Shown here: positions 1-17,041 of the stretch, piece by piece | How the letters are laid out: each line of letters starts with the position of its first letter | Numbering within the stretch: the first letter of the stretch is position 1 | Source: a virus | Taxonomy: Duplodnaviria; Heunggongvirae; Uroviricota; Caudoviricetes | IMG/VR virus record: IMGVR_UViG_2531839532_000008 | Span: 1-17,299 of that record | DNA length: 17,299 nt | Reading direction: 5' to 3' (one strand) | Made by a program: the position numbers and the translations under genes | Notes under the pieces: generated by a model | Seen by the model: the letters and a program-made list of their open reading frames with translations, nothing else | Databases searched by the model: none | What the model was told of the DNA's origin: nothing

Positions 1-1
1 A

Positions 2-568
2 TTAGCCTCTTATCTTGAATTCTGCTATAACTTTGCCGATGAATACAAGGTCATTAATGTTCATATCAACAATGATATTCCCATAGTTAATCTTAACTTT
101 ATTATCAGGAATTCTAATAACTTGTTTTATAGAATGCTTTCCATCAATGGAGATTAACCAATCACCATCAACTACATCTGTGAAATCCCTCTCAATAAAA
201 TAAGAGTTATTCCCGTTTGATATCACAGATGGTGATGATAAACCATCAGGAATGAACACCTTGTCAAACATTAGTGTTCCTGCATCCAATAGCACTCCAT
301 CAATCAATTTTATTTTTTGAATATTGATGATGTCAGAAGTTAAATATTCATGTTTAGGAGGTAAGCCTGTTACCAGCCACTTTATGTTTACTCCTGTTTC
401 GAGCGCGCACTGAATAACCCAATCAGAAGGGAATGAATCTCTCATGTAGCGTGTAGCAAGACTGCTTTTTGATATGCCTAGTTGTTCACATAACGCCTGT
501 CTTGTAGTGAACCCATAGGCTTCAACCATCCTTTCGATAGCTTTCTTTCCACCTTGACTAAAATCCAT
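2..568 (-). CDS. Phage immunity repressor, 186 CI-like (N-terminal HTH plus C-terminal domain)
   Basis: The ORF 2..673 translation contains MDFSQGGKKAIERMVEAYGFTTRQALCEQLGISKSSLATRYMRD...CALETGVNIKWLVTG, which resembles the N-terminal DNA-binding region of 186-type CI repressors. Start chosen at the ATG at 566-568, which has an AAGGTG ribosome-binding site just upstream; the 35 codons further upstream in the ORF are probably not translated. Divergent from a Cox/Apl-like gene. Confidence 0.78.
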   Translation of the reverse strand: MDFSQGGKKAIERMVEAYGFTTRQALCEQLGISKSSLATRYMRDSFPSDWVIQCALETGVNIKWLVTGLPPKHEYLTSDIINIQKIKLIDGVLLDAGTLMFDKVFIPDGLSSPSVISNGNNSYFIERDFTDVVDGDWLISIDGKHSIKQVIRIPDNKVKINYGNIIVDMNINDLVFIGKVIAEFKIRG

Positions 569-569
569 C

Positions 570-643
570 GATTTCACCTTGTGAACTTTATGGTTGACGA
601 TTTCAATTTGTGATCTTATAGTCGCATTGATTTCAAAATGTGA
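570..643. promoter_or_regulatory. Three direct repeats GATTTCA-N3-TGTGA (570-584, 599-613, 629-643) at 29-30 bp spacing; candidate operator set of the lysis-lysogeny switch
   Basis: Read directly: cGATTTCAcctTGTGAa, cGATTTCAattTGTGAt, tGATTTCAaaaTGTGAc. Copy 1 overlaps the repressor ribosome-binding site, copy 2 lies in the spacer of the candidate rightward promoter, copy 3 lies at its predicted transcription start. Confidence 0.55.
594..622 (+). promoter_or_regulatory. Candidate early lytic promoter (pR/Pe-like), TTGACG-17 bp-TATAGT
   Basis: Near-consensus sigma70 -35 (594-599) and -10 (617-622) hexamers with a 17 bp spacer, oriented toward the Cox/Apl-like gene that starts at 695. Confidence 0.55.
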
Positions 644-663
644 CTTACAACTGCTCGTCAATG

Positions 664-680
664 TTAAACACACTTAAACA
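664..680. promoter_or_regulatory. Tandem TTAAACA-cac-TTAAACA repeat in the early leader (cox-box-like)
   Basis: Direct repeat read in sequence between the candidate pR and the AGGAG ribosome-binding site of the Cox/Apl-like gene. Confidence 0.3.
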
Positions 681-694
681 GGAGATGTTGCCTT

Positions 695-916
695 ATGACT
701 CAGCACATTTCAATCACATTAGCTGTCCCATCCATTTCGGTTGAAAAGTACAGTGAACTCACAGGGTTATCTGTAGACACTATCAACAGTATGCTCGCAG
801 ATGGACGCCTTAAGCGGCATCGTCTTCGCAAGGATAAAAAACGTGAAAAGGTAATGATCAACATTGCAGCCATGACAGTGGATGCGCTTGCCGATTGCAA
901 TGTCGTAATCAATTGA
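695..916 (+). CDS. Cox/Apl-like small HTH protein (Cro-like switch regulator, possible excisionase)
   Basis: 73 aa ORF divergent from the repressor, with an AGGAG ribosome-binding site. Motif EKYSELTGLSVDTINSMLADGRL resembles the HTH of P2 Cox and 186 Apl. Position as first gene of the early operon matches those phages. Confidence 0.62.
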   Translation: MTQHISITLAVPSISVEKYSELTGLSVDTINSMLADGRLKRHRLRKDKKREKVMINIAAMTVDALADCNVVIN

Positions 917-948
917 TTCGATTTTGAAATAAAGGGAAGGGGCTGACT

Positions 949-975
949 ATGTTTGATTATCAAACCTCCAAACAT
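949..975. promoter_or_regulatory. Inverted repeat ATGTTTG-N13-CAAACAT (half-sites 20 bp centre to centre); candidate CII-type binding site
   Basis: Perfect 7 bp inverted half-sites at 949-955 and 969-975. I recall the 186 CII site at pE as ATGTTTG half-sites two helical turns apart, but that is from memory and not verified. Confidence 0.35.
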
Positions 976-1452
976 GCGCACTTTGATACGGCTTGCCGAG
1001 CATTTGCGATTGAGCACAACCTAGAAGATGTGGCCGCAGCCATTGGTATGAGACCACAGATCCTCCGCAACAAATTGAATCCAGCACAGCCGCACCGTTT
1101 AACCTGTGACGAGCTTTTAGCTATTACGGATTACACCGAAGATGCACGTTTACTGGATGGGATGCTGGGGCAGATTAACTGCCTTCCATCTGTACCGGTG
1201 AACAATGCCACAGAAGGCAACATGCAGTTGTGTGCACTAAGTGCCACAGCCAGTGTGGGAGCAATTGCTGGGGAAGCCGTATTAACTGGTCATATGCCCG
1301 CCGCCCGCCGTACACAAATTCTGGATCGCGCTCGCGATGCAATCCGTAGCTTATCCGTGCTGGCTTATACCGTTGAAAGCCGCATCCAGTCTGCGCCCGT
1401 TCTGGCCGCAGCGGTGGATCTGGTGACGGCTAACGCCACCGGCTTGATGTGA
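949..1452 (+). CDS. Phage CII-family regulatory protein (186 CII-like)
   Basis: 167 aa ORF immediately downstream of the Cox/Apl-like gene, with a GGGAAGGGG ribosome-binding region. Size and position match 186 CII (about 169 aa). Confidence 0.65.
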   Translation: MFDYQTSKHAHFDTACRAFAIEHNLEDVAAAIGMRPQILRNKLNPAQPHRLTCDELLAITDYTEDARLLDGMLGQINCLPSVPVNNATEGNMQLCALSATASVGAIAGEAVLTGHMPAARRTQILDRARDAIRSLSVLAYTVESRIQSAPVLAAAVDLVTANATGLM

Positions 1453-1461
1453 GGGAGCACC

Positions 1462-1635
1462 ATGAAAGCGTTTGTTACTTATCTCAAAAATGAATCACCA
1501 GCTATGCAGCTGCCAAGCGGTTCCACTGGTTGGATTGAATTGCCAAATGGCCAGCGCTGGAATCCTGGCTATATGTACAAATTCAATGGTCAGCAACCGC
1601 GCCGTCCGTGGTGGCGTCGCCTGATGGGGCTATAG
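1462..1635 (+). CDS. Small early-operon protein, 57 aa, unassigned
   Basis: Not in the supplied ORF track (below its length cutoff); read by hand as ATG 1462 to TAG 1633-1635 with a GAGGGAG ribosome-binding site 7 nt upstream. It fills the gap between the CII-like gene and the next ORF. Confidence 0.45.
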   Translation: MKAFVTYLKNESPAMQLPSGSTGWIELPNGQRWNPGYMYKFNGQQPRRPWWRRLMGL

Positions 1636-1644
1636 GGGGTTGTT

Positions 1645-2073
1645 ATGGCGATTAGTCAGGAACAGCAACAGCGCGGACTGGATCAGCTTAAAAAGATTCG
1701 CCGCAAATACTTCAATACCAGCAGTGAGGCTGCTGACTGGTGGGACAAATTAACACCGGAGTGGCGCGGGGTAGTTCTCCATGCCGCCGCTGTGAATTCT
1801 GGCTTGAGTGTCTTCAAAGCCCACTTAAGCAAATGCTGCTGGCGGGAACTGTTTGAACGTCTGGATTACCGGGCAATGATTCAGCTGCGTTGCGGCATTT
1901 CCCGCGCGCGTCTGACCATGAACGGATTCGGGTCATTGCGTGACAGTGATTTTTCTAAAAGTACCGCAAACCGTCCGATAAAGCGGGTTTATCCAATCAA
2001 TACCAATCGGGGGCCGCAAATGATTATCGCGCCTCACATCGTCCATAAGTTGCAAGAACAGGGGAATCTCTGA
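1645..2073 (+). CDS. Early-operon hypothetical protein, 142 aa
   Basis: ORF with an AGGGGG ribosome-binding site. Its stop overlaps the next start (TGATG), indicating translational coupling. No recognisable motif. Confidence 0.6.
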   Translation: MAISQEQQQRGLDQLKKIRRKYFNTSSEAADWWDKLTPEWRGVVLHAAAVNSGLSVFKAHLSKCCWRELFERLDYRAMIQLRCGISRARLTMNGFGSLRDSDFSKSTANRPIKRVYPINTNRGPQMIIAPHIVHKLQEQGNL

Positions 2074-2474
2074 TGACCATTATTTCTGTTGAAGGTAAAT
2101 CGTTAGGGGCTGAGCTGGCCGTGTGGGGAGTTCCGCATAATTACGCCGTGGCTTTTGCAGAGAAAAGCACCAGTAAAAATGGTCGTATTGCGTTACATCC
2201 GTTCTTCTTTAATGACACTGAGCACATGACTAATCCACGTCACTGGCTGGCGATCAATGCTGCTTTCTGGTGCTGCGTGTATCGCGAGGCCGAAAGCAAA
2301 GAAGCCCAGATTGAAGCGCTGGCCGGGATCCGCGCAATTTTCTATACGGCCGGGGCGCTGGGTGTTGGCGAGATTAAAGCACTGATTCAGGAGTGGTGGC
2401 GGACAACGTACGAGCTGCACCTTATTCCAGCACCGAACCATTCAGCCGTCACTGTACAACCCGCTTTTCACTAA
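2073..2474 (+). CDS. Early-operon hypothetical protein, 133 aa
   Basis: ORF whose start overlaps the stop of the upstream ORF by one base. Function unknown. Confidence 0.6.
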   Translation: MTIISVEGKSLGAELAVWGVPHNYAVAFAEKSTSKNGRIALHPFFFNDTEHMTNPRHWLAINAAFWCCVYREAESKEAQIEALAGIRAIFYTAGALGVGEIKALIQEWWRTTYELHLIPAPNHSAVTVQPAFH

Positions 2475-2493
2475 TTAACAACCTGAATTTTTT

Positions 2494-2512
2494 GGCCACA
2501 GCTTAGGTGGCC
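2494..2512 (+). other. Stem-loop GGCCAC-agcttag-GTGGCC followed by a short T-run
   Basis: 6 bp perfect stem with a 7 nt loop between two early ORFs; ttctttt lies a few nt downstream. Possible weak terminator or attenuator. Confidence 0.25.
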
Positions 2513-2541
2513 GGGGATTCTTTTGCCTTAAGGAAACCAAA

Positions 2542-2775
2542 ATGCACATGACACGTCAGGATTTACCCGCAACAAAATCAGGCACTGACCTGCTGGCCAT
2601 GCTCACTAAAGCCACGCAAGAAGGTAAAGCCGCAGTTGCTGATCTGTGTTCCACCCGCCTGGATAAGCTGGCCCCCCATGCAGCCAATGAAGGTTTAAGT
2701 GCAACGGAAATTGTTGAATTAATCCGCGAAGAAGCCGCAGCGATTTGCGGTAAAGGCGGTGCAGCATGGCAGTAA
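2542..2775 (+). CDS. Early-operon hypothetical protein, 77 aa
   Basis: ORF with an AAGGAAA ribosome-binding site. Its 3' end overlaps the start of the methyltransferase gene. Confidence 0.5.
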   Translation: MHMTRQDLPATKSGTDLLAMLTKATQEGKAAVADLCSTRLDKLAPHAANEGLSATEIVELIREEAAAICGKGGAAWQ

Positions 2776-3635
2776 AAACTCCGCTTAAGTGGGTGGGAAG
2801 CAAAGCCCGCCTTATGCCTCAGTTGCTTCCCCATCTGCCGGAAGGTAAGCGCCTGATTGAACCTTTCGCCGGTTCCTGCGCTGTCATGATGAATACGGAT
2901 TATGACGAGTATCTGATCGCTGATGTGAATCCTGATCTGGTCAATCTGTATAAGACGATGGCTTATCACACAGATGCGTTGCTTATTGAACTGGAGGCTT
3001 TGTTTTTTGCCGGTGCATTAGGCGATGAAGAAAACCGGGCAATTTTCTATTACGCAGTGCGTGATGCTTTCAACCAGTCCGGTAAATCCTTTGGTTCTGA
3101 ATCTGTGGAAGCTGCGGCGCGTTTTCTTTATCTGAACCGTCACTGCTTCAATGGTCTGTGCCGATACAATCGCCGTGGCCAGTTCAATGTTCCGTTTGGT
3201 AAGTACAAAAAAACGTACTTTCCTGCTGATGAAATACGCGCATTTGCTGAAAAAGCGAAACGCGCAACGTTCATTACTGCCCACTATTCAGAAACGCTTG
3301 ATTTGGTAAGGGACGGGCATGACGTTGTTTATTGTGATCCGCCTTACCTGACTGATACCGACAATTTCACCGCTTACCATGAGCGTGGTTTTTCGCACAT
3401 GGATCAGGGACGGCTGGCGCGTAAGTTGCGCCGCCTGGCTGAGCGTGGGATTAAGGTTGTCGCGTCAAACAGCGATCTGGAAATGGTACATTACCTGTAT
3501 GCAGGATTCGAAGCTGTACGGGTAAATGCACCGCGCAGTGTGGGTGCAGCAGCTGCAAGCCAGAAAGTTGCCGCAGAGCTGATTCTTAAGTCACCTGCAA
3601 ACCCGGCGATCGACGTTAGGGCGGTGGTGGCATGA
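2766..3635 (+). CDS. dam: DNA adenine methyltransferase, Dam family (GATC-type, D12 class N6-adenine MTase)
   Basis: Translation carries hallmark Dam motifs: LKWVGSK, EPFAGSCAV (AdoMet binding), FLYLNRHCFNGLCRYNRRGQFNVPFGKYKK and VVYCDPPY (catalytic DPPY). It aligns by eye along its length with E. coli Dam. Confidence 0.9.
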   Translation: MAVKTPLKWVGSKARLMPQLLPHLPEGKRLIEPFAGSCAVMMNTDYDEYLIADVNPDLVNLYKTMAYHTDALLIELEALFFAGALGDEENRAIFYYAVRDAFNQSGKSFGSESVEAAARFLYLNRHCFNGLCRYNRRGQFNVPFGKYKKTYFPADEIRAFAEKAKRATFITAHYSETLDLVRDGHDVVYCDPPYLTDTDNFTAYHERGFSHMDQGRLARKLRRLAERGIKVVASNSDLEMVHYLYAGFEAVRVNAPRSVGAAAASQKVAAELILKSPANPAIDVRAVVA

Positions 3636-3844
3636 TGGCGGAAATTATCACCGGCATTTATGCCTTGTTTGCCTGTTTTACTTTCGCCTTTCTCTTATGG
3701 GACGAATGTCAGGATGAATTTGATTACGATGCTGAGGATTTAGGGTTAATCACTCTGAGTGCGGTTCTCTGGCTACCGCTGGTAGCGGTCGTACTTGTGG
3801 CCTTCCTGATTGATTTCTGGGGCAAGTGGGTTAACCGTGGCTGA
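3632..3844 (+). CDS. Small hydrophobic protein, two predicted transmembrane segments, 70 aa
   Basis: The ORF overlaps the Dam stop (ATGATGG). The sequence is dominated by two hydrophobic stretches (IITGIYALFACFTFAFLLW and LITLSAVLWLPLVAVVLVAFLIDFW). Confidence 0.45.
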   Translation: MMAEIITGIYALFACFTFAFLLWDECQDEFDYDAEDLGLITLSAVLWLPLVAVVLVAFLIDFWGKWVNRG

Positions 3845-3845
3845 T

Positions 3846-5861
3846 ATGTTGGAGCCTGGCCAACACCACGCCGTCAATGCCTGGCGGCGTGAAACCTTTG
3901 CGCCTGGCACCCCGTCAGATGCGACGATCACAGAACGTCGCCTGTGGGCTGTTAACCCTCAGGATTACGAATGGCGTTCCCAGTACCTGCATGAGATACC
4001 CGACTGGTTAGCCGGGTATTTTGGCAACCGTTACGAAAAGCTGCTGTCTGGTCGTGACGGGCGTCGCCGTGCCAATACATTCCTGCGCAAGACTATCGGC
4101 GGGAATGTATTGCCACGTCTGCGCAAAGTGGCTGCACGTTACAAGCTGGCCGCTGATGCACTTGATCTTCCTTTCGGTAAGTCGCTGGAGCGACTGCCGT
4201 CACTTGACCGCCCGGACCTCAAAAAACTGGCTGGTCAGATATCTGGCTGGATTTCCCAGTCACTTTATGACTTCACCGATCAGTTTGTGGGCAGCACTGA
4301 CGATGCCGCAGAGCTGCGCCGCCGTACGCTGGAGTCTTACCGCCATTTATGCACATGTTCCCTGATGCTGAACAATCAACCGCCGTACTGGGCAGAGCAT
4401 GAAGCTAATGGCGGGCAACTGGAAACGCGTAAGGCTGAATCCGGGATTCTTCGCATGATGGCACCTGAATGGTGGTATCTGCGTCTTAAGCGAGCGCGTG
4501 ATATGCAGCGTGAGCATATGGCCATTGCCGTGGGGCAGGTACAGAAAGCCGCCAGTGCTTATGTGTCCCGTAAAACCCTGGGCGAATGGATAGACCAGAA
4601 AAAGCGGAACCTTGAGTTCTTCAAAAAGTTTGACCTCCTGAATGATGAAGGGCTGCGTATTGCGCTGGACAGCATGGTGCACCGCAGCGTTGCTAATCCG
4701 GCGATCCGTCGCTGTGAGCTAATGGTAAGAATGAGAGGATTTGAAGATATGGCCAATGAAGAAGGGCTGGCCGGTGAGTTTTACACCATCACTGCGCCAT
4801 CGCGATTCCATGCGGTACACAGCAAAGGGGGCTTTGTTTCACAGTGGGATGGCTGCACCCCGCAGGACACCCAGCGCTACTTATGCGGTGTATGGGCGAA
4901 AGCCCGCGCCGCTATTTCCCGGGCAGGTATCCATGTTTTTGGTTTTCGTGTGGTAGAGCCTCACCACGATGGCACACCGCACTGGCACATGCTGCTTTTT
5001 ATGCGTCCTGGTGACGTGGATACCGTGCGCGATATTCTTTGTTATCACGCCAGAATTACCGACTCCGAAGAACTGCAAACGCCAAACGCGCTAAAGGCAC
5101 GTTTCCATGTTGAAGCCATCGATCCCGCTAAAGGTTCGGCTACGGGTTATATCGCCAAATACATATCCAAAAATATTGATGGATTTGCGCTGGATGGTGA
5201 ACAGGACGACGAAACAGGGGAAAACCTGCGGGATATGGCCAAATCCGTTTCTGCATGGGCTTCACGGTGGCGCATTCGCCAGTTTCAGCAGATTGGTGGT
5301 GCGCCGGTGACTGTCTGGCGCGAGTTGCGCCGGTTGCGTGATCAGGTGCTGACTGACCGCCGAATGGATGCGGTTCTGGCTGCTGCTGATGTTGGGGACT
5401 GGGCTGCATACACCCAGGCGCAGGGTGGCGCACTGGTTGCCCGCCGTGATTTGGTTGTTCGTCTGGCTTATGAAATCACGGAACAGGGTAATGAATACGC
5501 AGAGGACGTGCAGCGTGTTCAGGGTGTCTATTCGCCATTGGTTCCAGATTCAGCGGTATGTACGCGCCTGGTGAAGTGGCAGAAGGTTGCGAAGTTGGCC
5601 GAAGCGCCAGCGGAGGCGGGTTTTTCTGGCGGCAACGCCGCCCCTTGGAGTTCTGTCAATAACTGTACGGAGGGGGGAACCCGCAGACGGTTAAAACTGG
5701 AATTACGCAGTCGGGGTTTTGATGGTTCCGATGAAGAAATAGCCATTCTCCTGCGGGGGAGTGGTTTGATATTTGGTCAGGGGGCACTGATTTACCGTAA
5801 CGGGCGGCTTAAAGAGACTCAAAACGAGCCATTGCAGGAGCTGTGGCCGGGGTGGTTGTAG
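3846..5861 (+). CDS. Replication initiation endonuclease, P2 gpA / 186 A family (HUH rolling-circle initiator)
   Basis: Contains the HUH metal-binding motif (GTPHWHMLLF) and a tyrosine motif (GYIAKYISKNIDG) typical of the P2 A family. Start placed at ATG 3846, one nt after the upstream stop; an in-frame ATG at 3810 and GTG at 3837 are alternatives. Confidence 0.88.
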   Translation: MLEPGQHHAVNAWRRETFAPGTPSDATITERRLWAVNPQDYEWRSQYLHEIPDWLAGYFGNRYEKLLSGRDGRRRANTFLRKTIGGNVLPRLRKVAARYKLAADALDLPFGKSLERLPSLDRPDLKKLAGQISGWISQSLYDFTDQFVGSTDDAAELRRRTLESYRHLCTCSLMLNNQPPYWAEHEANGGQLETRKAESGILRMMAPEWWYLRLKRARDMQREHMAIAVGQVQKAASAYVSRKTLGEWIDQKKRNLEFFKKFDLLNDEGLRIALDSMVHRSVANPAIRRCELMVRMRGFEDMANEEGLAGEFYTITAPSRFHAVHSKGGFVSQWDGCTPQDTQRYLCGVWAKARAAISRAGIHVFGFRVVEPHHDGTPHWHMLLFMRPGDVDTVRDILCYHARITDSEELQTPNALKARFHVEAIDPAKGSATGYIAKYISKNIDGFALDGEQDDETGENLRDMAKSVSAWASRWRIRQFQQIGGAPVTVWRELRRLRDQVLTDRRMDAVLAAADVGDWAAYTQAQGGALVARRDLVVRLAYEITEQGNEYAEDVQRVQGVYSPLVPDSAVCTRLVKWQKVAKLAEAPAEAGFSGGNAAPWSSVNNCTEGGTRRRLKLELRSRGFDGSDEEIAILLRGSGLIFGQGALIYRNGRLKETQNEPLQELWPGWL

Positions 5862-5939
5862 TGGTGTAAGTATGTGAAAGGCATTCATTTGTCAGTAGAT
5901 GGCAGGAAAAAGCACTTTCACATTTTGTGCTTAAATGTA

Positions 5940-5959
5940 TACTGTGTTTATATACAGTT
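5940..5959. promoter_or_regulatory. LexA (SOS) box TACTGTGTTTATATACAGTT
   Basis: Perfect CTGT-N8-ACAG palindrome with an AT-rich centre, matching the E. coli LexA consensus. It overlaps candidate promoter hexamers (TTGTGC ... TATATA) directed rightward. Confidence 0.75.
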
Positions 5960-5982
5960 ATTCTGTTTTTGGGAGGATGCTT

Positions 5983-6195
5983 GTGCAGGATTTGTTTTTG
6001 GAAACTATCGCATTGCAGCGGATTGCGTTGTTTACAAGGCTTATAGCTAAAAGTAATTGCACCGGCTGTGAGAAAGACATAGCACTTGCCTGGCTGAGTG
6101 AACTGACTTCAGATCTGGAAAGTAAGCTCGATGAGTATGAAAACAAAACCCCCAGTAATGGGGGCATTTCAGGCGGCGGGAGTCGTTTTCAGTAG
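5983..6195 (+). CDS. Small LexA-controlled ORF (about 70 aa); candidate SOS-inducible antirepressor by position (186 Tum locus analogue); function unknown
   Basis: ORF immediately downstream of the LexA box, with a GGGAGG ribosome-binding site 6 nt before the GTG at 5983 (in-frame ATG at 5977 is an alternative). The antisense ORF over the same DNA is a low-complexity S/L-rich frame. Its 3' end overlaps the convergent zinc-finger gene by 27 bp. Confidence 0.4.
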   Translation: MQDLFLETIALQRIALFTRLIAKSNCTGCEKDIALAWLSELTSDLESKLDEYENKTPSNGGISGGGSRFQ

Positions 6196-6492
6196 GTCTA
6201 ATGCCATCTGGCGCTGATCGGGTGAAAGTGCATTCAGTATTTTTTGCACCATCGCATCACCCGTTTTAGCGCTGGGGCTGAGAGTGTGGGAGAACGTCAG
6301 ATTCATAACAAACGTGTGGCCACACTCAACATCTGAACAGGCACAGTAAATATCGGCAATCTGCCGGTGCTTCCGGTTCGTTTTACGAATAACAGCCTTT
6401 GAGCCGCATTCCGGGCATTCGATTTTCAGAACTCGCATATTCCATGCTCCAGCTGTTAAATGATGCCTGGATTTTAGCCTGTTTCGCCTCAT
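6169..6492 (-). CDS. Ogr/Delta-family zinc-finger protein (candidate late-gene transcriptional activator)
   Basis: CPEC-x22-CSDVEC-GHTF matches the Ogr/Delta signature C-x2-C-x22-C-x4-C-x2-TF. The ATG at 6492 overlaps the portal stop (ATGA), suggesting translational coupling; an internal ATG at 6438 with a GGAG ribosome-binding site is an alternative start. Confidence 0.75.
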   Translation of the reverse strand: MRRNRLKSRHHLTAGAWNMRVLKIECPECGSKAVIRKTNRKHRQIADIYCACSDVECGHTFVMNLTFSHTLSPSAKTGDAMVQKILNALSPDQRQMALDLLKTTPAA

Positions 6493-7550
6493 GCCGCACC
6501 CTTATCCGTTGATTCTGTGTAACTTAAATCAAAGTTAAGGTGTAGCCTTTCCGGTATTTCGGGATCGTTGTTAACGGCCAGCATGAAACGGCGCTGGATG
6601 GGGGCAATTTCGCTTTTCTTGTAAATGCGTTCAGCCTTTTCAACATCCCCCAGTCCGGCAGTGTTCTGCGGGACAATGCCGGCGAGGCCAGCAGGGAAAC
6701 GGTGCGCGTTCAGAATGTCCTGGGCGCTGATGTTTTTGATGTTGGCAAATTCATCCTTCGCGGAAATATCCCCCATTTCAATGAATTTGATGGCGTCGCC
6801 GTCTCCACCGGGAATGTTTACAAGGATGGTGGAGAAGTTACCGATCCCTTTGCTGTCCCGCAGCTGCTGTTCAATTTCTTCCTCCATTTCGTCCGTCATG
6901 CTGGGATCGCGGGTATAAAGAATACCGCCAGTGTGCGCACCGTTGTGGTAATAGCGGCGTCGGAAAATGACCGCTTCACTGTTAAGTAACGCGGAATGCA
7001 CACCGCCGATGTAGTCCGGCAGTCCGTAGATATGCTGTTGCGGGTCATACATTTTGATGAAGATAATATCTTCTTCTGGCCATACCTGCGGTTCTCCTTC
7101 CTGTAACACCACGTAGTCACCGGGCTTATCCAGGGCGTTATCTCTGACTTTGCGGCGGCGAATATACAGACCGGGCAAGGGTTCAAGTGCGATCACGTCG
7201 CCCCAGCCGTTACGAATTTTGGCAATCGCAATATCCCCAAAGGTTATATAGTCAAACGCTGCCGCTTCCAGCTGATCGTGAATAAGCCCGCCCCCCTGGT
7301 AGTCTGAAACAATCATGTTTTTACGGGCGTGAATGATGCCGCCGTGCTGACCGTTAAGATTAATCAGTTGCGCGAGTGCCAGCCGGTCTATCGGCTGGGT
7401 GAAGTGATCGGCTGCATTGTCGTACCAAATATCACGGTAATCTGTGCCGGTAGTCAGAACCGGTTCAGGTTTGCCGAATGTGATAATGCTCATCTTTTTT
7501 GATTTGTCGCCGCGCTGGTCGCGCTTAACAAAGCGTTTCTTTTTACTCAT
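6489..7550 (-). CDS. Phage portal protein (P2 gpQ-like)
   Basis: 353 aa ORF directly downstream of, and translationally coupled to (ATGA overlap), the terminase ATPase gene. Size and position match P2 Q (about 344 aa). Confidence 0.8.
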   Translation of the reverse strand: MSKKKRFVKRDQRGDKSKKMSIITFGKPEPVLTTGTDYRDIWYDNAADHFTQPIDRLALAQLINLNGQHGGIIHARKNMIVSDYQGGGLIHDQLEAAAFDYITFGDIAIAKIRNGWGDVIALEPLPGLYIRRRKVRDNALDKPGDYVVLQEGEPQVWPEEDIIFIKMYDPQQHIYGLPDYIGGVHSALLNSEAVIFRRRYYHNGAHTGGILYTRDPSMTDEMEEEIEQQLRDSKGIGNFSTILVNIPGGDGDAIKFIEMGDISAKDEFANIKNISAQDILNAHRFPAGLAGIVPQNTAGLGDVEKAERIYKKSEIAPIQRRFMLAVNNDPEIPERLHLNFDLSYTESTDKGAA

Positions 7551-9322
7551 GCTGCCTCTTTCCTTACACCCCAGCGGGATTTAGGTTTGTTTTCATAGTT
7601 AAGGGGTTCGTTATGCAGACCGTGGGTAATTGCCCAGAATGCCTCTGCGTGGCCGGTATCCTGGCTGCGGTCAGCGACAAACGTCATGGCGTTGCCGCTT
7701 TGTGTGGTGGTTCTACGCACAGACATAAAGCTGGCCGCGATCTCTTTCAGGTTTTTATCCCACTCAATACGCTGGCTTTCCACCACGTCCACCGCTTTCA
7801 GTACCAGCTTATTTTTGGTGTTCAGGTCGTAACGAATAGGGACGGCCACGCGCATGGCAAAATGCTGAATGTTGTCAAAAACACCCTGGCCAATGCCGGT
7901 AACGTCCACCCCCAGATAAGTGAAGTTGTATTTTTTGAACAACTGCTCGATCTGTTTTGCCTGGTACCGGAAGTTCATGCCTTTCCAGTAAATCACCTTC
8001 AGAACGCGGAACTTCTCCACGGCGAGCATCGGTGGGGCGATGATGACAAAACAGGACAAATCCCCGCTGCGAGCCGGGTCAAAGCCGCCCCACACTGGCC
8101 TGTCACCGAATGGCCGCGCTGCATCCGGGTTGTGATCCTGCCAGGTGTCGATTTCAACGCCGCAGGCTTCCAGGTCGGAAAAGCTGAAAACGGAATCTTT
8201 GCTGTCAACGAACACGCACATATAGAGCATGTTAAAAGTGGCGTCGTTGTAGCGGTTGCGAAGTTTCTCGATGTTCGCCAGGTTGAAACCGCCTGCAATG
8301 GCATCTTCCATCGTAATGACGTAGCGCCATTGCCCATCCGGGCAGAGTCGTCCCCCGTCACGCATTTCGTTAAAGGAAGGAAACTTAATGGCCGCACGTT
8401 TTTTACTGCCCTGTTTCCACTCATCGCCCGTCCAGAACGGGTACGCCTGGTGCGTTTTTGCCGATGGCGTTGAAAAATAGGGGGTACGCCACTTGTCATG
8501 CGTGGCCATTGCGCTGGCCACTTCGTTAAGTTTTGCAAAGTTTGGCACCCAGAAATATTCGTCACAGTACAGGTGGCCACTGTAGGACTGTGCGGTGTTT
8601 TTGTTGGTGGAGAGAAAACGCAGTTCTGCGCCGTTGCTTAAGCGGATCGGGTTGCCGGTCAGCGTAATACCGAAATACTGCTCTGCAATATTCACGATGT
8701 AAGACCGGAACACTTCAGCCTGAGCCTTTGACGCTGACAGAAAGATTTGCGGATCTCCGGTCATCACCGCGTTTTCAAACGCTTCAAACGCAAAATACCA
8801 GGTCGCACCGATCTGGCGGCTTTTCAGGATGTTCCTGACAAGCTGGCCAATGTTATTGCGCAGGTGTTTCTGATATTCAAAAAGATGTTCCTCAGCCCAT
8901 GCGTCAAAGTCCTCCTGCGTCAGCGAGGTAATATCGTTTTTCTTGTACTTCCGTTTGCTGCGCGGTTCGTCGTCATTGTTGTCCCGCGCAGCTGCTTGCC
9001 CGAAACTCTGACCGCTGGCCATTTTCTCTTTGTGTTTATTACTCTGCGCACGCAGTTTCGTGGCATGAGCAATGAGCATGTCCATTTCTTTCAGGTCGAG
9101 ATCGGTTTTATTATCGCGGCTGGCCAGCAGCTGGTAACGGCGTTCAATTGCTTCCTCTGTGCTTTCAAAACTGAGCAAATCCGCCCAGCTGTATTTCTCC
9201 GCCCAGTAGTAAACGATCCGCGCATTCGGCAGATTTAATTCAGATGCGATTTCCTTTGGCGTATAGCGGCGCAGATAAAGTGCGCGAACAACGCCTTTTA
9301 ATTCTTCAGAGTATTTAGCCAT
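7547..9322 (-). CDS. Terminase large (ATPase) subunit, P2 gpP-like
   Basis: 591 aa ORF (P2 P is about 590 aa), divergent from the scaffold/capsid operon as in P2. The ORFs on the opposite strand inside it are shadow frames. Confidence 0.85.
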   Translation of the reverse strand: MAKYSEELKGVVRALYLRRYTPKEIASELNLPNARIVYYWAEKYSWADLLSFESTEEAIERRYQLLASRDNKTDLDLKEMDMLIAHATKLRAQSNKHKEKMASGQSFGQAAARDNNDDEPRSKRKYKKNDITSLTQEDFDAWAEEHLFEYQKHLRNNIGQLVRNILKSRQIGATWYFAFEAFENAVMTGDPQIFLSASKAQAEVFRSYIVNIAEQYFGITLTGNPIRLSNGAELRFLSTNKNTAQSYSGHLYCDEYFWVPNFAKLNEVASAMATHDKWRTPYFSTPSAKTHQAYPFWTGDEWKQGSKKRAAIKFPSFNEMRDGGRLCPDGQWRYVITMEDAIAGGFNLANIEKLRNRYNDATFNMLYMCVFVDSKDSVFSFSDLEACGVEIDTWQDHNPDAARPFGDRPVWGGFDPARSGDLSCFVIIAPPMLAVEKFRVLKVIYWKGMNFRYQAKQIEQLFKKYNFTYLGVDVTGIGQGVFDNIQHFAMRVAVPIRYDLNTKNKLVLKAVDVVESQRIEWDKNLKEIAASFMSVRRTTTQSGNAMTFVADRSQDTGHAEAFWAITHGLHNEPLNYENKPKSRWGVRKEAA

Positions 9323-9376
9323 GCGGATAATTATGCCGTGGCTGTGATGAAAAAACGGTGGGGTTAATTCGTCTCT

Positions 9377-9401
9377 GTTCGGTAAAGCGTTATAACCGAA
9401 C
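9377..9401. promoter_or_regulatory. Dyad GTTCGGT-N11-ACCGAAC in the divergent P/O intergenic region; candidate late-promoter activator site
   Basis: Perfect 7 bp inverted repeat read in sequence, centred about 95 bp upstream of the scaffold start and about 65 bp upstream of the terminase start. Confidence 0.35.
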
Positions 9402-9484
9402 TGTTCAGAATAAAGCGTAATGCAGCGGCGGTTTTATTTGGCAATAATTGAGTTCGCAGGGTCAGTGAATAAATCAGGGGGGAT

Positions 9485-10285
9485 ATGTCGCATTTAAAAA
9501 CTGACTGGCTGTGTGTTGCCACAGAAGGCGATACGGTTGATGGCAGGGTCATGGAACGGCAATGGATTATTGACATGGGGGAAACCTATGATGTCACCCA
9601 TTACGCCGCACTAATCTGGCCTGAACATGAACGATATGCCGGTAATTTTGGCGAAGTGCTAAAGGCGATGTGGCAGGACGGGGAAGATGGGCTGGCACGA
9701 TTATATGTGAGCCTGTGTCCTAACAAGCGCCTGTTGTATGCCAATGATGAAGGGCAGTTGCTTTATTTCTCTGTTGAGCCAGAACTTAACTGGCGCGGAG
9801 GTGAGCGAACGTATCTGGGCGGACTGGCCGTAACGGACAATCCCGCCAGTGTGGGCACTACACGGTTGCGCTTTAGTCGGCGCAGACTATCAAAACAGGG
9901 ATATTACAGTTGCGTAATTTCCCGTGACGGAAAAATTAAGCAGGAAGAACTGATGAAAAAAACCTGGCACCATTTATTTGGCATTAAGCCAAAGTTTGAA
10001 AGCGAAGGTCAGCAGGATGATACGCAGCAGGGTGATGATAAATTGCAGGCGCTTGCGAATGCTGTTAACGATCTGGAAGCACGAGGGGGGGCAATTGAAA
10101 AACAACTGAGCACGGTTCAGGAAGATGTGGATACTATTGTTGAAGTTGTGGACACGGAAGAGTTTGCGACCATTCGCGATAATGCGAAAGAAATCGTAAC
10201 ACGCTTTAACGATCTGGGTAATAAGAATACCCGCTCACCGGGGCGTAAAATTTCAGAAAAAGCCGGGAAATATAATTTTCTGTAA
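9485..10285 (+). CDS. Capsid scaffolding protein (P2 gpO-like)
   Basis: 266 aa ORF, first gene of the rightward head operon, with an AGGGGGG ribosome-binding site. Acidic, coiled-coil-like C-terminal half. Position and size match P2 O. Confidence 0.78.
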   Translation: MSHLKTDWLCVATEGDTVDGRVMERQWIIDMGETYDVTHYAALIWPEHERYAGNFGEVLKAMWQDGEDGLARLYVSLCPNKRLLYANDEGQLLYFSVEPELNWRGGERTYLGGLAVTDNPASVGTTRLRFSRRRLSKQGYYSCVISRDGKIKQEELMKKTWHHLFGIKPKFESEGQQDDTQQGDDKLQALANAVNDLEARGGAIEKQLSTVQEDVDTIVEVVDTEEFATIRDNAKEIVTRFNDLGNKNTRSPGRKISEKAGKYNFL

Positions 10286-10348
10286 TTCGCTTTAACGCTG
10301 ATTAGCCCAGAATAAATTTTATATATCGCTTAATTGCGAGGGAGTTTT

Positions 10349-11371
10349 ATGCACCTTAATAATCGTGCGCGGGATTTACTGGATAAATATTCGGCGGGGA
10401 TGGCGCAGCATTTTGGCGCACGTGATACCAGTCGTTATTTTTCCCTGAATGACCCGCAGGAAAATGCGCTGCGTCTTGCGTTGCTGGAGTCCGTCGAGTT
10501 CCTGAACATGATCACCTGTCTGGATGTTGACCAACTGAGTGGCCAGGGGATCTCTGTCGGTTCTTCCGTGCTGCATACCGGCCGCAGCGAAAATGGCCGT
10601 TTTATTCGTCGTGTGGGTGTTGACGGTAATGACTATTCGCTGGTTGAGACAGACAGCTGCGCCGCGTTGCGCTGGGATCTGCTTTCGGTCTGGGCAAATG
10701 CGGGTAAGGACGAAAACGAGTTTTTCAACCTTGTCCAGGCATTCACCACGCAGGCTTTTGCACTGGATATGCTGCGTATTGGTTTTAACGGTAAAAGCCG
10801 TGCAAAAACCACTGATCCCGAAGCTAACCCGAACGGCGAAGATGTGAACGTCGGCTGGCATGAGCGAATGAAAACGCTGCTGGGTGGCAATCAGATTATG
10901 ACCGATCCCGTGGTGCTCGATGAGGCCGGGGATTACAAGTCACTGGATGCAATGGCGTCCGATCTGATTAACGCCAAAATCCCGGCGCAGTTCCGCAATG
11001 ACCCGCGTCTGGTTGTCCTGGTCGGTGCCGATCTGGTCGCTGCTGAACAGTACCGACTGTATCAGGCAGCAGACCGTCCGACTGAAAAAATTGCTGCGCA
11101 GATGCTGGGAAGCACCATTGCTGGTCGTCAGGCCATTATCCCGCCGTTTATGCCGGGTAAACGCATGGTGGTTACGCCGCTTTCTAACCTGCACATCTAC
11201 ACCCAGCGCAATACCCGTATGCGTAAGGCGGAGTTTGTTGAAGATCGTAAGCAGTTCGAAAACAAATATCTGCGCAATGAAGGTTACGCGGTGGAAGTGC
11301 CGGAGCTGTATGCGGCCATTGATGAATCTGCTGTGACAATCGGCAAAGTCTCCGAACCGGTGGAGGGCTGA
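10349..11371 (+). CDS. Major capsid protein (P2 gpN family)
   Basis: Motifs GFNGKSRAKTTDPEANPNGEDVNVGW and GDYKSLDAMASD align by eye with conserved blocks of P2 N. Start placed at ATG 10349, which follows a GAGGGAG ribosome-binding site. Confidence 0.85.
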   Translation: MHLNNRARDLLDKYSAGMAQHFGARDTSRYFSLNDPQENALRLALLESVEFLNMITCLDVDQLSGQGISVGSSVLHTGRSENGRFIRRVGVDGNDYSLVETDSCAALRWDLLSVWANAGKDENEFFNLVQAFTTQAFALDMLRIGFNGKSRAKTTDPEANPNGEDVNVGWHERMKTLLGGNQIMTDPVVLDEAGDYKSLDAMASDLINAKIPAQFRNDPRLVVLVGADLVAAEQYRLYQAADRPTEKIAAQMLGSTIAGRQAIIPPFMPGKRMVVTPLSNLHIYTQRNTRMRKAEFVEDRKQFENKYLRNEGYAVEVPELYAAIDESAVTIGKVSEPVEG

Positions 11372-11374
11372 TAA

Positions 11375-11890
11375 ATGGCACTTTCCCCCGCGCAGCGTCA
11401 CAGCCAGCGTATTGCAATGGAACAAAAGCTGAAGCGCAGCCAGGCACTGGAAACCACAGAAAGTATGCATCTGCTGATCAGGGCGCTGGAAAAGGATGTG
11501 GAACACGTTCGAAGTCTGCCTACCATCGCCGATCGCGTCGAATATAAACGCGATGTGCTGTTGCCGCGCTGGGTTCCTACTGTGGAAGGGACTACCACGT
11601 CAGCACCGGCTAATGCCTGGCAAAAATGGAATGGTAAGGCGTGGGTGGATGATGCGGAGGCCATGCGAACTGCATTGGTCAGCGAGGCAGACGCCGAAAA
11701 GAAAAGCCTGCTTAAACAGGCCAATGATGCCATTGCCACATTGCAGGATGCCGTTGATTTAGACATGGCGACCGAAGAAGAAGCACTCCTGCTTATCGCA
11801 TGGAAAAAATACCGCGTTTTACTGAATCGTATTCAACCGGAAGATGCGCCGGAAATTGTGTGGCCGGAGGTGCCTGGAAATGTGGCGTGA
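11375..11890 (+). CDS. Terminase small (endonuclease) subunit, P2 gpM-like
   Basis: N-terminus MALSPAQRHSQRIA parallels the P2 M N-terminus (SPAQRH motif). It immediately follows the capsid gene, as in P2. Confidence 0.75.
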   Translation: MALSPAQRHSQRIAMEQKLKRSQALETTESMHLLIRALEKDVEHVRSLPTIADRVEYKRDVLLPRWVPTVEGTTTSAPANAWQKWNGKAWVDDAEAMRTALVSEADAEKKSLLKQANDAIATLQDAVDLDMATEEEALLLIAWKKYRVLLNRIQPEDAPEIVWPEVPGNVA

Positions 11891-12605
11891 AGCACGTCTG
11901 GCCTTCACGGATTCTGTTGCTGCGCTGAACTGTTCGATCGTCCCTGCGCATCCGTGGATTTATGGGCTGGGACAGCAGACAGCGAACGGGGCATATCTCA
12001 GCCCGGTTAATGCCGTTCGCTATCTTGCTGAACGCCTGGCCGGAACAGGTGGGAATGTGGACGTGGTGATTATGATGGTCACCGGACAGACGCAGGAAAA
12101 CTTTATGGCCAGTCTGAATAACCTGGTCGGGATTTTCCCCGCCCCGGCATTCACACAGGTCAAACGGCTGGCGCAATCCGCCGCAGCGTTGGCTATTGAA
12201 AAGATGCAGATCCCGGCGAAAGCCGCCGCAGCGTTACCTGCGTCCATTCCGCTGTCTGTACCAACCAGCAGGGCAGCTTTATCTGCTGCGGCAATCAGCC
12301 AGGCACAAAAGGCGGCGGGTGCCGGGTTTGATATCGAAGGGCTGAAAAAACAGCTGGGCGAGTTCACGCAGCTGCGTGACCAGCTTATCAGTGATGTGGC
12401 CAGCGGCCTGAATGATTTACAGGGGAAAAGTGCCAGAGCGTGGGTTTTTACTGCCAGCGGAGACACCGGTACCACGTTACTGGAACTGGTGAAGGACATT
12501 CCGCAGCAGTCTGCCGTTTACACCGCAGCCATGATGCTGGTTGGCGATAATCTTGATGGAATAAAGGGAATGATTCATGACTTCGATCCCGACACTGGCG
12601 CTTAA
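11880..12605 (+). CDS. Late-operon hypothetical protein, 241 aa, Ala-rich central region (occupies the position of head completion gene L)
   Basis: Start placed at ATG 11880 with a GGAGGTG ribosome-binding site; it overlaps the upstream stop (ATGTGGCGTGA). No recognisable motif. Confidence 0.55.
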   Translation: MWREARLAFTDSVAALNCSIVPAHPWIYGLGQQTANGAYLSPVNAVRYLAERLAGTGGNVDVVIMMVTGQTQENFMASLNNLVGIFPAPAFTQVKRLAQSAAALAIEKMQIPAKAAAALPASIPLSVPTSRAALSAAAISQAQKAAGAGFDIEGLKKQLGEFTQLRDQLISDVASGLNDLQGKSARAWVFTASGDTGTTLLELVKDIPQQSAVYTAAMMLVGDNLDGIKGMIHDFDPDTGA

Positions 12606-13122
12606 TGGCGAGGCCATCCAGCTGAAAAACATGCGGGTGACTGTTTCACAGCAGTTTCAGGATAAAGATCAGTCCGGCCAGACCAGCGCCACAACAAAAT
12701 CAGAGCAGGGGGCAAAGGGAAAGGAACTGCGGATCAGCGGTGAAATCCCTTTTAAACAGCCTGAAATACTGAAGCGTATTTTTGAGCTGGCCAGTGCTAC
12801 CGATGCCAGTGGTAATCGTCAGAAGTACCGCGTGGCGCATGAAGTTGCCCGTGCTGTTAATTTTCGTGAAGCAACGTTTAGCGGAATGCTGGATGCACCA
12901 CAGCAGGACGGAAAAATGTCCTGGCTGGTGACATTCACACTGGCGGAACATATCAGCGTGCAGGAAAAGCGAGAGGCAAGGGCAACAGGTAAGACGACCG
13001 CAAAAAAACAGACTGCCAGTAGTGCGGGACAGTCCGGTGGTCAGTCTGCCGGAGAAGATGAAGAAAAACTGACGTGGTTTGAACGCAAGGTGCTGAAGCC
13101 CGTCAATGATGCTTTGGGTTAA
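12577..13122 (+). CDS. Late-operon hypothetical protein, 181 aa
   Basis: ORF with an AAGGGA ribosome-binding site; it overlaps the upstream gene by 29 nt. Gly/Ser/Gln-rich acidic C-terminus. Unassigned. Confidence 0.55.
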   Translation: MTSIPTLALNGEAIQLKNMRVTVSQQFQDKDQSGQTSATTKSEQGAKGKELRISGEIPFKQPEILKRIFELASATDASGNRQKYRVAHEVARAVNFREATFSGMLDAPQQDGKMSWLVTFTLAEHISVQEKREARATGKTTAKKQTASSAGQSGGQSAGEDEEKLTWFERKVLKPVNDALG

Positions 13123-14090
13123 TGATGAAACCAGTAAAACGCCTTTACCTTTCAACGGATGAAGTTCACCTGGTGGATGCCAGCCTGGTACTGGAGCTGA
13201 ACAGCTGCGGCCGGGGCTTCATCACCGCAGAGACAACAACCGATTACACCGGAAAACTGGTGCGGCTGGATGTGGGGTATACCGATCTGCTTTTGCGCTG
13301 GTTTACGGGGTATGCGGAGCGATCGCAGCCCGCTGAAAACGGTTTTCAGCGTCTGTTCATTCGTGAACTGGTTGGTGTGTTTGAAAGGATGTGGCCATGT
13401 TCGTTTCAACACCCGACTTTGCGTGAAATTGCGGGCTGGCTGGAAGAAAACAGCGGGATCACGGTCAGTGTGCCTGACACACAGTACAGCGATACCCCCA
13501 TCCCACATTTTACCCATAACGGTACTGGTTATCAGTTGCTGAACAATCTGGGCAGGTCGTTCAGTATCCAGGATTACATCTGGTACCAGTTGCCTGATGG
13601 TTCGCTTTACGTCGGCGGCGCAGAAAAGTCATTGTTTGCCGGTCGTCCCGTAGAAATCCCGTCAGAGTTCAGCCAGGGTGCTGCTGGCGGTAACTCTGTG
13701 ACATTACCAGTGATCCAGACTATGCGGCCAGGGGTGGAGATGAACGGTGAACGCGTGACTAAAGTTCACCTGACTAATGACACGATGGCGATCACATGGA
13801 CGCCGAGAAACCGCGCAACGGGTAAACCTTTGCAGAAAACACCGGCGCAACGGCAGATTGAAAGCCATTACCCGGAACTGGCATCCGGGCTTCATTTGCC
13901 AAAGATGGCCAGAGTCGTGGCGCATTCAGAGCCGGTAAAAAGCGGTAACTTTGCCGATCCCTTCCGGCCACGTTACGCCGTGGACGTGCAGCTGCTTGAC
14001 GCAGACGGAAACCCTATGGTGATGCCTTGCTTCAGGTCGGCGAAATCACCAATCACGCAATTGTCAGTAATAACAATACCGTTCAGATGA
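13122..14090 (+). CDS. Late-operon hypothetical protein, 322 aa; its C-terminus probably derives from read-through across the element junction
   Basis: TAATG overlap with the upstream gene. The last roughly 24-40 codons are antisense to a conserved hexapeptide acetyltransferase segment, so the native C-terminus may have been lost. Confidence 0.5.
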   Translation: MMKPVKRLYLSTDEVHLVDASLVLELNSCGRGFITAETTTDYTGKLVRLDVGYTDLLLRWFTGYAERSQPAENGFQRLFIRELVGVFERMWPCSFQHPTLREIAGWLEENSGITVSVPDTQYSDTPIPHFTHNGTGYQLLNNLGRSFSIQDYIWYQLPDGSLYVGGAEKSLFAGRPVEIPSEFSQGAAGGNSVTLPVIQTMRPGVEMNGERVTKVHLTNDTMAITWTPRNRATGKPLQKTPAQRQIESHYPELASGLHLPKMARVVAHSEPVKSGNFADPFRPRYAVDVQLLDADGNPMVMPCFRSAKSPITQLSVITIPFR

Positions 14091-14679: not shown

Positions 14680-16365
14680 TTATCCTAATCCTGGCCATAC
14701 CATGACGATGATTGTCCCTGCCAGCGTCAGCAGGACGTTGGCGATTGCATAGGTGCCCGCATAGCCCAGCGCCGGGATGTTACTGCGAGCTGTATCACTG
14801 ATGATCTCCATTGCCGGCGCGCAGGTACGTGCGCCCATCATTGCGCCGAACAACAGCGCGCGGTTCATTCGCAATACATAAGCACCGAACAAGAAACAGA
14901 TAACCACGGGCACCAGACTGACAATCAATCCGGCAATCAACATCTGACCGCCAATCGCGCCCAGGCCGTTATTAATACCGCTACCGGCGCTCAGACCAAC
15001 CCCTGCCATAAACACCATCAAGCCGAACTCTTTCACCATGCTTAATGCACCCTGCGGAATGTAACCGAAGGTCGGGTGGTTAGCACGCATAAAGCCCAGC
15101 ATAATTCCGGCGAATAACAACCCGGCAGCGTTCCCCATGCCGAAACTGAATGTGCTGAACTGGAAGGTGATCATCCCGATCATCAGCCCAATAACAAAGA
15201 AGGCGCAGAATGCCAGCAGGTCAGTGACCTGGCTGTGAATCGAGATAAAGCCGATGCGATCGGCGATGGTTTTTACGCGGCGGGCATCGCCGCTGACTTG
15301 TAAAACGTCACCTTTGTTAAGCACGACGTTGTCATCTATCGGCATCTCAATCTGGCTACGAATGACGCGGTTAAGGAAGCAACCGTGATCGGTCAACTTC
15401 AGTTGTGCGAGACGTTTACCTACAGCGTTATGGTTTTTAACGACCACTTCTTCAGTGACGATACGCATGTCGAGAAGGTCACGATCGAAAACTTCTTTAC
15501 CGTTACGGAAGCTGGGATCGAGTCGGGCATGGGCGTCGGGATAGCCTACCAACGCTATTTCATCGCCCATTTGTAGCACGGCATCACCGTCTGGATTTGC
15601 CAGAATCCCGTTACGTCGAATACGTTCAATGTAGCAGCCGGTTTGTCGATAAATACCCAGTTCACGCAGATTTTTGCCGTCGGTCCAGGCCACCAGTTCC
15701 GGGCCGACGCGATAGGCACGGATCACCGGTAAATAAACCTTACGGTTGGCATCAGTGTCCAGGCCACGTTCGCGGGCGATTTGCTGGGCGCTGGTCTGTA
15801 AGTCCTGATGCTGCAATTTCGGCAAGTAACGCGCACCAACAATCAAACTCACCAGACCGATTAAATAGGTTAAGGCATACCCGAGGCTCAGATTATCCAG
15901 TGCCAGTGAGAGCTGCCTGCTTTCCATGCCGGAATGACGCAGTGTATCGCCAGCACCGACCAGAACCGGTGTCGACGTCATAGAGCCTGCTAACATACCG
16001 GCCGTCAGGCCAATATCCCAGCCAAACAGCTTACCTAACCCTAAGGCGATCACCAGCGCACTGCCAACCATCACCAGTGCTAACATTAGGTAATTTTTCC
16101 CATCGCGAAAAAAAATGGAAAAAAAGTTCGGTCCGGCTTCGACCCCGACGCAGAAAATAAACAGCATAAAGCCAAGATTAAGCGCATCGGTGTTAATGCT
16201 GAAATGTTGTTGGCCTAATAACAGCGATACGACTAAAACGCCAATGGAATTACCCAGTTGGATCGAACCAAGTCGTAACTTTCCGAGACATAGCCCAAGC
16301 GCGAGGACCACAAATAATAACAGAATGTAATTCCCATTTAACAATTCGGCGACGTTTATATTCAC
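14680..16365 (-). CDS. ybjL: Putative transport protein YbjL (two transporter domains with central TrkA-C-like domains)
   Basis: 561 aa translation matches E. coli YbjL as I recall it ([30 protein letters not shown]...). Its neighbours are ybjM and grxA, as in E. coli K-12. The start appears to be GTG at 16363-16365. Confidence 0.88.
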
Positions 16366-17031: not shown

Positions 17032-17041
17032 TGTCAGACGA

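Follow-up and report, generated by a model that had tools for sequence, protein, structure and literature searches.

The late genes of bacteriophages P2 and 186 are switched on by Ogr and B, activators of 72 aa with one four-cysteine zinc finger of the form C-x2-C-x22-C-x4-C. This is the only gene of its kind in each phage, and it lies after tail gene D next to the attachment site (att), as the last gene of a late transcription unit that is then closed by a terminator. The P2 and 186 records show a single activator site shared by the divergent terminase and scaffold promoters, and P2 has three annotated activator sites and four promoters. The Delta protein of satellite P4 is a 166 aa tandem duplication of the same type of finger, and Serratia NucC, an Ogr homologue from a cryptic prophage, controls host genes and activates P2-type promoters. 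The window analysed here is a 17,299 nt stretch of viral DNA (IMG/VR record IMGVR_UViG_2531839532_000008, positions 1 to 17,299), in which an Ogr/Delta-like zinc-finger gene instead follows the portal gene. This gene is likely to be the late-transcription activator of a P2-family phage of the HP1/K139 type, and would act through a conserved dyad lying between two divergent promoters of fixed geometry. The genes on which this argument turns are as follows:

6169..6492, minus strand: Ogr/Delta-like zinc-finger gene, longest open reading frame of 107 aa, with an ATG that overlaps the TGA of the portal gene as ATGA
6489..7550, minus strand: portal gene, directly upstream of the zinc-finger gene (Pfam Phage_portal, E=1e-17)
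7547..9322, minus strand: large terminase gene, first in the leftward late operon (Pfam Terminase_6N, Terminase_6C and Terminase_5)
9485..10285, divergent from the terminase gene: scaffold gene; the P2-type capsid gene is also divergent

Membership of the Ogr/Delta family, first proposed in the sequence-only reading, is secure, and the gene itself is already annotated in public records: in the genome of Escherichia coli 300709 it is listed by NCBI as an 'ogr/Delta-like zinc finger family protein' of 107 aa. Residues 25-71 match the entire Pfam Ogr_Delta model PF04606 (1-47/47; E=9.2e-20, 70.8 bits against a cut-off of 26.3 bits), which is no chance resemblance, and other zinc ribbons (PF14354, PF03119, PF01396 and PF14690) all fall under their Pfam cut-offs, Lar reaching 20.2 of the 28.6 bits needed. 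The motif, C26-x2-C29-x22-C52-x4-C57-GH-TF, aligns at its cysteines without gaps to P2 Ogr, 186 B and both halves of P4 Delta, C26, C29, C52 and C57 corresponding to C4, C7, C30 and C35 of Ogr; an extra cysteine, Cys50, is aligned to a histidine in Ogr. Unlike Delta, the window protein is single-domain and phage-encoded. The match to its own subfamily is strong (phrog_603, 'transcriptional regulator', E=2.6e-40), and the protein is 57-58% identical to Orf13 of phage K139. Between 5800 and 7600 the prophage shares 98.6% identity with the Peduoviridae phages ESSI2_ev040, ev015 and ev129 (genus Quadragintavirus), the first of which is available as a complete genome. When this genome was searched by tblastn with Ogr, B, Delta, K139 Orf13 and the window's own protein, the post-portal locus was the sole match, and as the only Ogr/Delta member of a complete relative the gene is the obvious candidate for the late activator. 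A weak tblastn match of Ogr to the window at 17129-17269 was rejected as a second activator, being the host glutaredoxin gene grxA. A sequence search of solved structures returned nothing relevant, and an Rfam scan of 5600-6800 found no RNA family.

The position of the gene had been described as non-canonical. That description is correct with respect to P2 and 186, in which ogr and B do stand at the end of the tail operon adjoining att, but it does not apply to the gene's own lineage. We examined 81 related loci, comprising 80 genome loci retrieved with a protein alignment together with ESSI2_ev040, and the order terminase, portal, zinc-finger gene was found in 49 of them, spanning Escherichia, Enterobacter, Kluyvera, Erwinia, Pectobacterium, Brenneria, Serratia, Xenorhabdus, Photorhabdus, Providencia, Morganella and others; K139 and HP2 have the same order. 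Among phage records, tblastn detected homologues in K139 (orf13, annotated as a 'zinc-finger protein'), Kappa (kp19), phiO18P, F108 and Yersinia and Salmonella phages. In K139, Kappa and HP2, as in the window, the gene is on the same strand as the portal gene and downstream of it, and faces a convergent neighbour whose terminator region overlaps its 3' end; K139 differs in that one more small gene, orf14, separates orf13 from the portal gene. The HP2 homologue is an unannotated Ogr-like reading frame (locus L086, 5001-5264) between the portal gene and terminator T14, sharing 37% identity with the query across 99% of its length (E=1e-13) and having an extended -10 sequence, TGATATAAT, upstream. 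Judged from these gene orders, the post-portal position is the norm for the HP1/K139-type branch and, like the gene family and its annotation, is already public. The replication gene A is on the other side of the zinc-finger gene from the portal and terminase genes. In HP1-type phages cos is reported to adjoin attP and not to lie downstream of the portal gene (PMC2771037), leaving the latter site free. A P2-like cos beside the zinc-finger gene was considered and rejected, the only trace of one being a weak and probably chance resemblance of 5901-5918 (GGCAGGAAAAAGCAC) to part of the P2/186/P4 cohesive-end sequence, GGCGGGGAAAGCAC.

Further analysis of the region between the divergent terminase and scaffold genes revealed a set of symmetrically arranged elements:

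9378..9400: dyad TTCGGTAAAGCGTTATAACCGAA, the proposed activator site, in the interval that separates the divergently transcribed terminase and scaffold genes
9367..9370: terminase-side outer half-site, reading ATTC (GAAT on the complementary strand) and separated from the dyad by 7 nt
9408..9411: scaffold-side outer half-site, reading GAAT and likewise separated from the dyad by 7 nt
9330..9335, minus strand: CATAAT, -10-like element of the putative late promoter that reads leftward into the terminase gene, at 42 bp from the edge of the dyad
9443..9448, plus strand: AATAAT, -10-like element of the putative late promoter that reads rightward into the scaffold gene, at 42 bp from the edge of the dyad

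The dyad is unique both in the window and in the complete phage ESSI2_ev040. Across 48 related terminase/scaffold intergenic regions the pattern TTCGG-N13/14-CCGAA is perfect in 34 and carries one mismatch in 10, and the 963 kb of loci surveyed contain 42 perfect copies where ~1.8 would be expected by chance (an approximately 23-fold enrichment). Anchoring the 44 unique intergenic regions on the dyad gives a consensus GAAT at positions 8-11 from each of its edges. Further out, CATAAT is found at the exact 42 bp offset on the terminase side in 32 of these regions, and is shifted by one base in six more; on the scaffold side, AATAAT, AATACT or GATACT is at the exact 42 bp offset in 37, and the same scaffold-side offset recurs before tail genes in Xenorhabdus clusters. 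The dyad would thereby be centred near -66 relative to both of the divergent promoters, neither of which has a -35 element. It is also present between the terminase and scaffold genes of K139 and Kappa, and in HP2, where the half-sites are one helical turn further apart, they lie inside a repeat whose record reads 'most likely contains promoters for late genes'. The arrangement resembles the single activator site between the terminase and scaffold promoters of P2 and 186, although only one candidate site per phage is found here, in contrast to the three of P2. The late genes of K139 and ESSI2_ev040 are organised as one long array with a divergent terminase-portal unit, such that one activator site would be enough.

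In the Escherichia and Enterobacter group, CATAAT ends 7 nt before the terminase ATG (in a flank of 54-55 nt; 9320-9336 in the window), which implies a leaderless or near-leaderless terminase mRNA, whilst the Xenorhabdus relatives have a terminase leader of ~38 nt instead. The exact P2 consensus, TGT-N12-ACA, does not occur in 9323-9484, although this is a weak test, as the sites of P2 and 186 themselves also fail the exact pattern; elsewhere in the window and in the full phage its exact matches are at chance level. A full-text literature search with the dyad sequence found nothing relevant.

The sequence-only reading had also credited the protein with a C-terminal extension of roughly 40 residues beyond the Ogr core. 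Alignment to Ogr and B shows otherwise: there are ~22 extra residues at the N terminus and ~13 at the C terminus, the latter forming a tail that is predicted to be helical, is unrelated to those of Ogr and B, and is kept within the subfamily. Eighteen of the extra N-terminal residues precede a second start codon, M19, from which the protein would be 89 aa long, against 72 aa for Ogr. Three features are associated with this start:

6169..6438, minus strand: short form of the zinc-finger gene from M19, 89 aa, annotated as a 'transcriptional regulator' in the RefSeq phages ESSI2_ev040, ev015 and ev129
6447..6450, minus strand: GGAG, ribosome-binding site for the M19 ATG (6438-6436), which it precedes by 8 nt; conserved in the portal-linked loci
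6471..6476, minus strand: TAAAAT, candidate -10 element picked out by its conservation, 32 nt upstream of the M19 ATG and within the 18-codon extension

Of the 78 loci whose zinc-finger motif could be placed, nearly all have an ATG or GTG seven codons before the first cysteine; this applies also to loci that lack an upstream portal gene, where it is the only start. TAAAAT is invariant in 48 of the 49 portal-linked loci despite diverging flanks, and the codons that span it exchange amino acids yet preserve the DNA sequence. Either TAAAAT or TATAAT is also present upstream of homologues from Xenorhabdus, Proteus, Vibrio and HP2, again including those lacking an adjacent portal gene; at the equivalent place the K139 record has an annotated putative promoter, P13, and HP2 the extended -10 sequence noted above. 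In the 48 unique portal-linked loci, the entropy at the three codon positions is 1.06, 1.00 and 1.24 in the extension, compared with 0.46, 0.20 and 1.25 in the core, and the near-equal variation of the former implies that the peptide is barely constrained. Hence these alignments suggest that the zinc-finger gene probably has both its own promoter, at TAAAAT, and its own start, at M19; the simplest reading of them would be use of both starts, with only weak constraint on the extension peptide.

The unit formed by the terminase, portal and zinc-finger genes ends directly after the stop codon of the last of these:

6139..6165, minus strand: intrinsic terminator, GCCCCCATTACTGGGGGT then TTTTGTTTT

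A comparable hairpin and T-run follows the stop codon in most related loci. No terminator-like site was detected on the minus strand from 9322 to 6492, and late transcription would therefore be expected to read through the terminase and portal genes into the gene for its own activator, whose 4 nt start/stop overlap with the portal gene was confirmed. The positive feedback that had been suggested on this basis remains plausible, the gene being the last before the terminator, but it is not a novelty of this locus, since the terminator after ogr or B in the P2 and 186 records already serves as the end point of the late tail operon as well as of the activator's transcript. Neither need it be a dependency, given that a gene with a probable promoter and start of its own could be expressed without the operon it activates.

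These elements can be assembled into a model that we consider likely. The zinc-finger protein would first be produced as the 89 aa form, from M19, through its own weak sigma-70-type promoter with TAAAAT at 6476-6471 as the -10 element. It would then bind the dyad TTCGG-N13-CCGAA at 9378-9400, together with the outer GAAT half-sites, midway between the terminase and scaffold genes, and so switch on two promoters without -35 elements, reading leftward from CATAAT and rightward from AATAAT, each at 42 bp from an edge of the dyad. When the late promoters become active, transcripts running on through the terminase and portal genes as far as the terminator at 6165-6139 would add further activator, and this read-through RNA may also give the 107 aa form by translational coupling at the ATGA.

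Several observations weigh against this model. Sequence identity with Ogr and B reaches only 26-28% and does not extend beyond the zinc finger, and an AlphaFold2 model built on a 23-sequence alignment was poor (mean predicted local distance difference test score, pLDDT, of 54), with moderate confidence only for two C-terminal helices, 73-88 and 91-102. The dyad is unlike the P2 consensus TGT-N12-ACA in both sequence and spacing, and with its centre at approximately -66, as opposed to -55 in P2, the geometry of activation may differ. The literature searched, which did not cover the K139 and HP1/HP2 genome papers, contains no experimental evidence on the subfamily. At the gene itself, TAAAAT has no recognisable -35 partner, and the 18 codons preceding M19 are free of stops in frame 0 in all 48 unique loci, when frame 2 contains a stop in 19 of the 48; an extension kept open in this way argues for its translation, which would not be needed if it served only as promoter and leader.

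The last point also bears on the alternative that the gene has no promoter of its own and is made only as the 107 aa form, coupled to the portal gene, in a pure feedback loop primed by basal transcription. In accordance with this, an ATG overlaps the portal stop codon, as ATGA or TAATG, in ~45 of the 49 portal-linked loci, the NCBI annotation gives the longer protein, and the distance from portal stop to first cysteine is nearly constant, seven of the eight exceptions being multiples of three (L046 is off by 4). We nevertheless regard it as doubtful. Two loci, L003 and L035, have lost the upstream ATG but retained M19; this start and its ribosome-binding site are near-universal, and serve alone where no portal gene is present; the extension varies almost equally at all codon positions, such that its peptide is hardly under constraint; TAAAAT is preserved at the DNA level even though the surrounding codons come to specify other amino acids; and a loop consisting purely of feedback would have no trigger.

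At its 3' end the zinc-finger gene is met by a small gene transcribed from the opposite direction:

5977..6195, plus strand: small convergent gene, with a product of 72 aa if started at ATG 5977 and of 70 aa if started at GTG 5983; phrog_698
5940..5959, plus strand: LexA box TACTGTGTTTATATACAGTT, with CTGT-N8-ACAG spacing, upstream of the convergent small gene

Control of this convergent reading frame by LexA, and its overlap with the zinc-finger gene by 27 bp, had both been noted before. The overlap is present (6169-6195), as is the LexA box, although the start of the longest reading frame (5935..6195, plus strand) is not sustained: the box lies over the ATG at 5935, and hence the true start is more likely to be ATG 5977, as annotated by NCBI, or GTG 5983. 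The match of the small protein to phrog_698, a family of unknown function, covers only residues 3-57 of 72, leaving the tail encoded by the overlap outside the conserved core; the possibility that it is a Tum homologue was rejected, as it has no similarity to 186 Tum. Convergent small reading frames with overlaps of 15-30 nt were found in 28 of the 49 portal-linked loci, and CTGT-N8-ACAG sequences 190-230 nt beyond the activator stop codon in 31. In the plus direction the terminator hairpin, which is inside the small reading frame, has no T-run, and transcripts initiated in the SOS response could consequently enter the activator gene in the antisense orientation. The arrangement of these sequences makes such read-through upon SOS induction plausible. 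A second terminator-like hairpin, GCCGGTGCTTCCGGT then TCGTTTTACG, is found on the plus strand at 6363-6377, antisense within the activator coding region; it could end such read-through transcripts, but may be fortuitous, since its sequence is also that of the conserved NRKHR codons.

Among the relatives from Vibrio and Aliivibrio, the LexA box is in the promoter of the Ogr-like gene itself, beside TATAAT, in contrast to the window, where it is upstream of the convergent gene. The sites are at 5930-5960 in K139 (locus L085; CTGTACAAAAACACAG) and upstream of 6001 and 103 in loci L078 and L079, respectively; from their placement, the late activator may be directly under SOS control in these phages.

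It is possible, if unlikely, that the locus combines two modes of expression, an 89 aa protein from the embedded promoter and a 107 aa protein with a basic N terminus by coupling at the ATGA, with an antisense timing circuit driven by the SOS response. Were this so, SOS induction would hold back the late activator while a putative antirepressor acts, and overlapping convergent transcription would constitute a conserved timing circuit. Alternatively, the main role of the gene might be in a lysis-lysogeny or SOS circuit, for instance by controlling the convergent LexA-regulated gene or being controlled by it via overlapping transcription, with late activation secondary. The frequency of the LexA box and of the overlap, the one-directional terminator and the Vibrio promoters are consistent with such a role, yet it is very improbable: neither the dyad nor any other shared operator was found near the small gene, the overlap affects only the tail of the small protein beyond its family profile, the LexA box is absent from 18 of the 49 loci and the overlap from many, and the evidence for the late promoters is much stronger. 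As to an operator shared with the immunity switch region (556-705), comparison of this region with the sequence upstream of the zinc-finger gene gave only one 10-mer, CTAAAATCCA, which overlaps the start codon of the repressor and was judged to be a chance match.

Homologues are also found in other settings. In Xenorhabdus they lie beside host genes, at the edge of tail clusters that have no head genes, and are followed by the dyad with GAAT and AATAAT and then by genes for tail completion, sheath, tube and tape measure; these headless clusters argue for control of late-gene transcription and against a part in packaging. That the protein is a zinc-ribbon DNA-binding factor for head assembly or DNA packaging, and not for transcription, is accordingly the least credible alternative, since its place and orientation directly after the terminase and portal genes in 49 loci, and the sub-threshold Pfam matches to zinc ribbons such as Lar, ligase and topoisomerase, are set against an Ogr_Delta match far above threshold, close homologues in the headless Xenorhabdus clusters and between host genes in Proteus, and a conserved dyad that is at promoters and not at a packaging site, cos being next to attP in HP1-type phages (PMC2771037).

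Every sampled species of Proteus (L057-L073) has an orphan homologue of 86 aa, at ~6001 of the respective locus. In the one Proteus locus checked, L073, it is situated between a major-facilitator transporter gene and dihydroxyacetone kinase genes, with TATAAT upstream and no phage genes nearby. These orphans may be domesticated regulators, and resemble the situation of NucC, an Ogr-family regulator in a decayed prophage. The homologue of Enterobacter sp. EA-1 (L077, ~6030) is apparently disrupted: its match is limited to residues 10-59, its distance from the portal stop is altered, and the reading frame is cut to 61 aa.

The window is 100% identical to the genome of E. coli 300709 (NZ_CP025903), and the region is present in only 29 of 5,426 complete E. 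coli genomes. The window carries a P2-family prophage of the HP1/K139 type that is deleted and defective. An internal deletion is evident at 11375-14400, where homology to ESSI2_ev040 ends at ~11588, within the small terminase gene, and the sequence from 11584 onwards corresponds to that end of ESSI2_ev239 which carries the tail-fibre-assembly and baseplate genes, the junction producing a chimeric reading frame (11375..11890). The prophage has no genes for head completion, lysis, sheath, tube or tape measure; beyond it are the host genes ybjL (14680..16365), ybjM and grxA. Between the genes for a CI-like repressor and a Cox-like protein, three direct repeats of GATTTCA-N4-TGTGA at 569-650 coincide in part with a TTGACG-17-TATAGT promoter and probably serve as immunity operators.

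The main value of this analysis lies in the operator and promoter geometry that it suggests for the HP1/K139 branch. The resulting regulatory map would consist of one activator, one four-part operator, GAAT-N7-TTCGG-N13/14-CCGAA-N7-ATTC, and two divergent promoters at fixed distances, and would cover a widespread, unstudied branch of P2-like phages as well as phage-tail clusters in the Enterobacterales and Vibrionaceae. As the operator is unlike the P2/186/P4 consensus, cross-talk with P4-type satellites would not be expected. The motif could also be used to find late operons, and tail-gene clusters under the control of orphan homologues.

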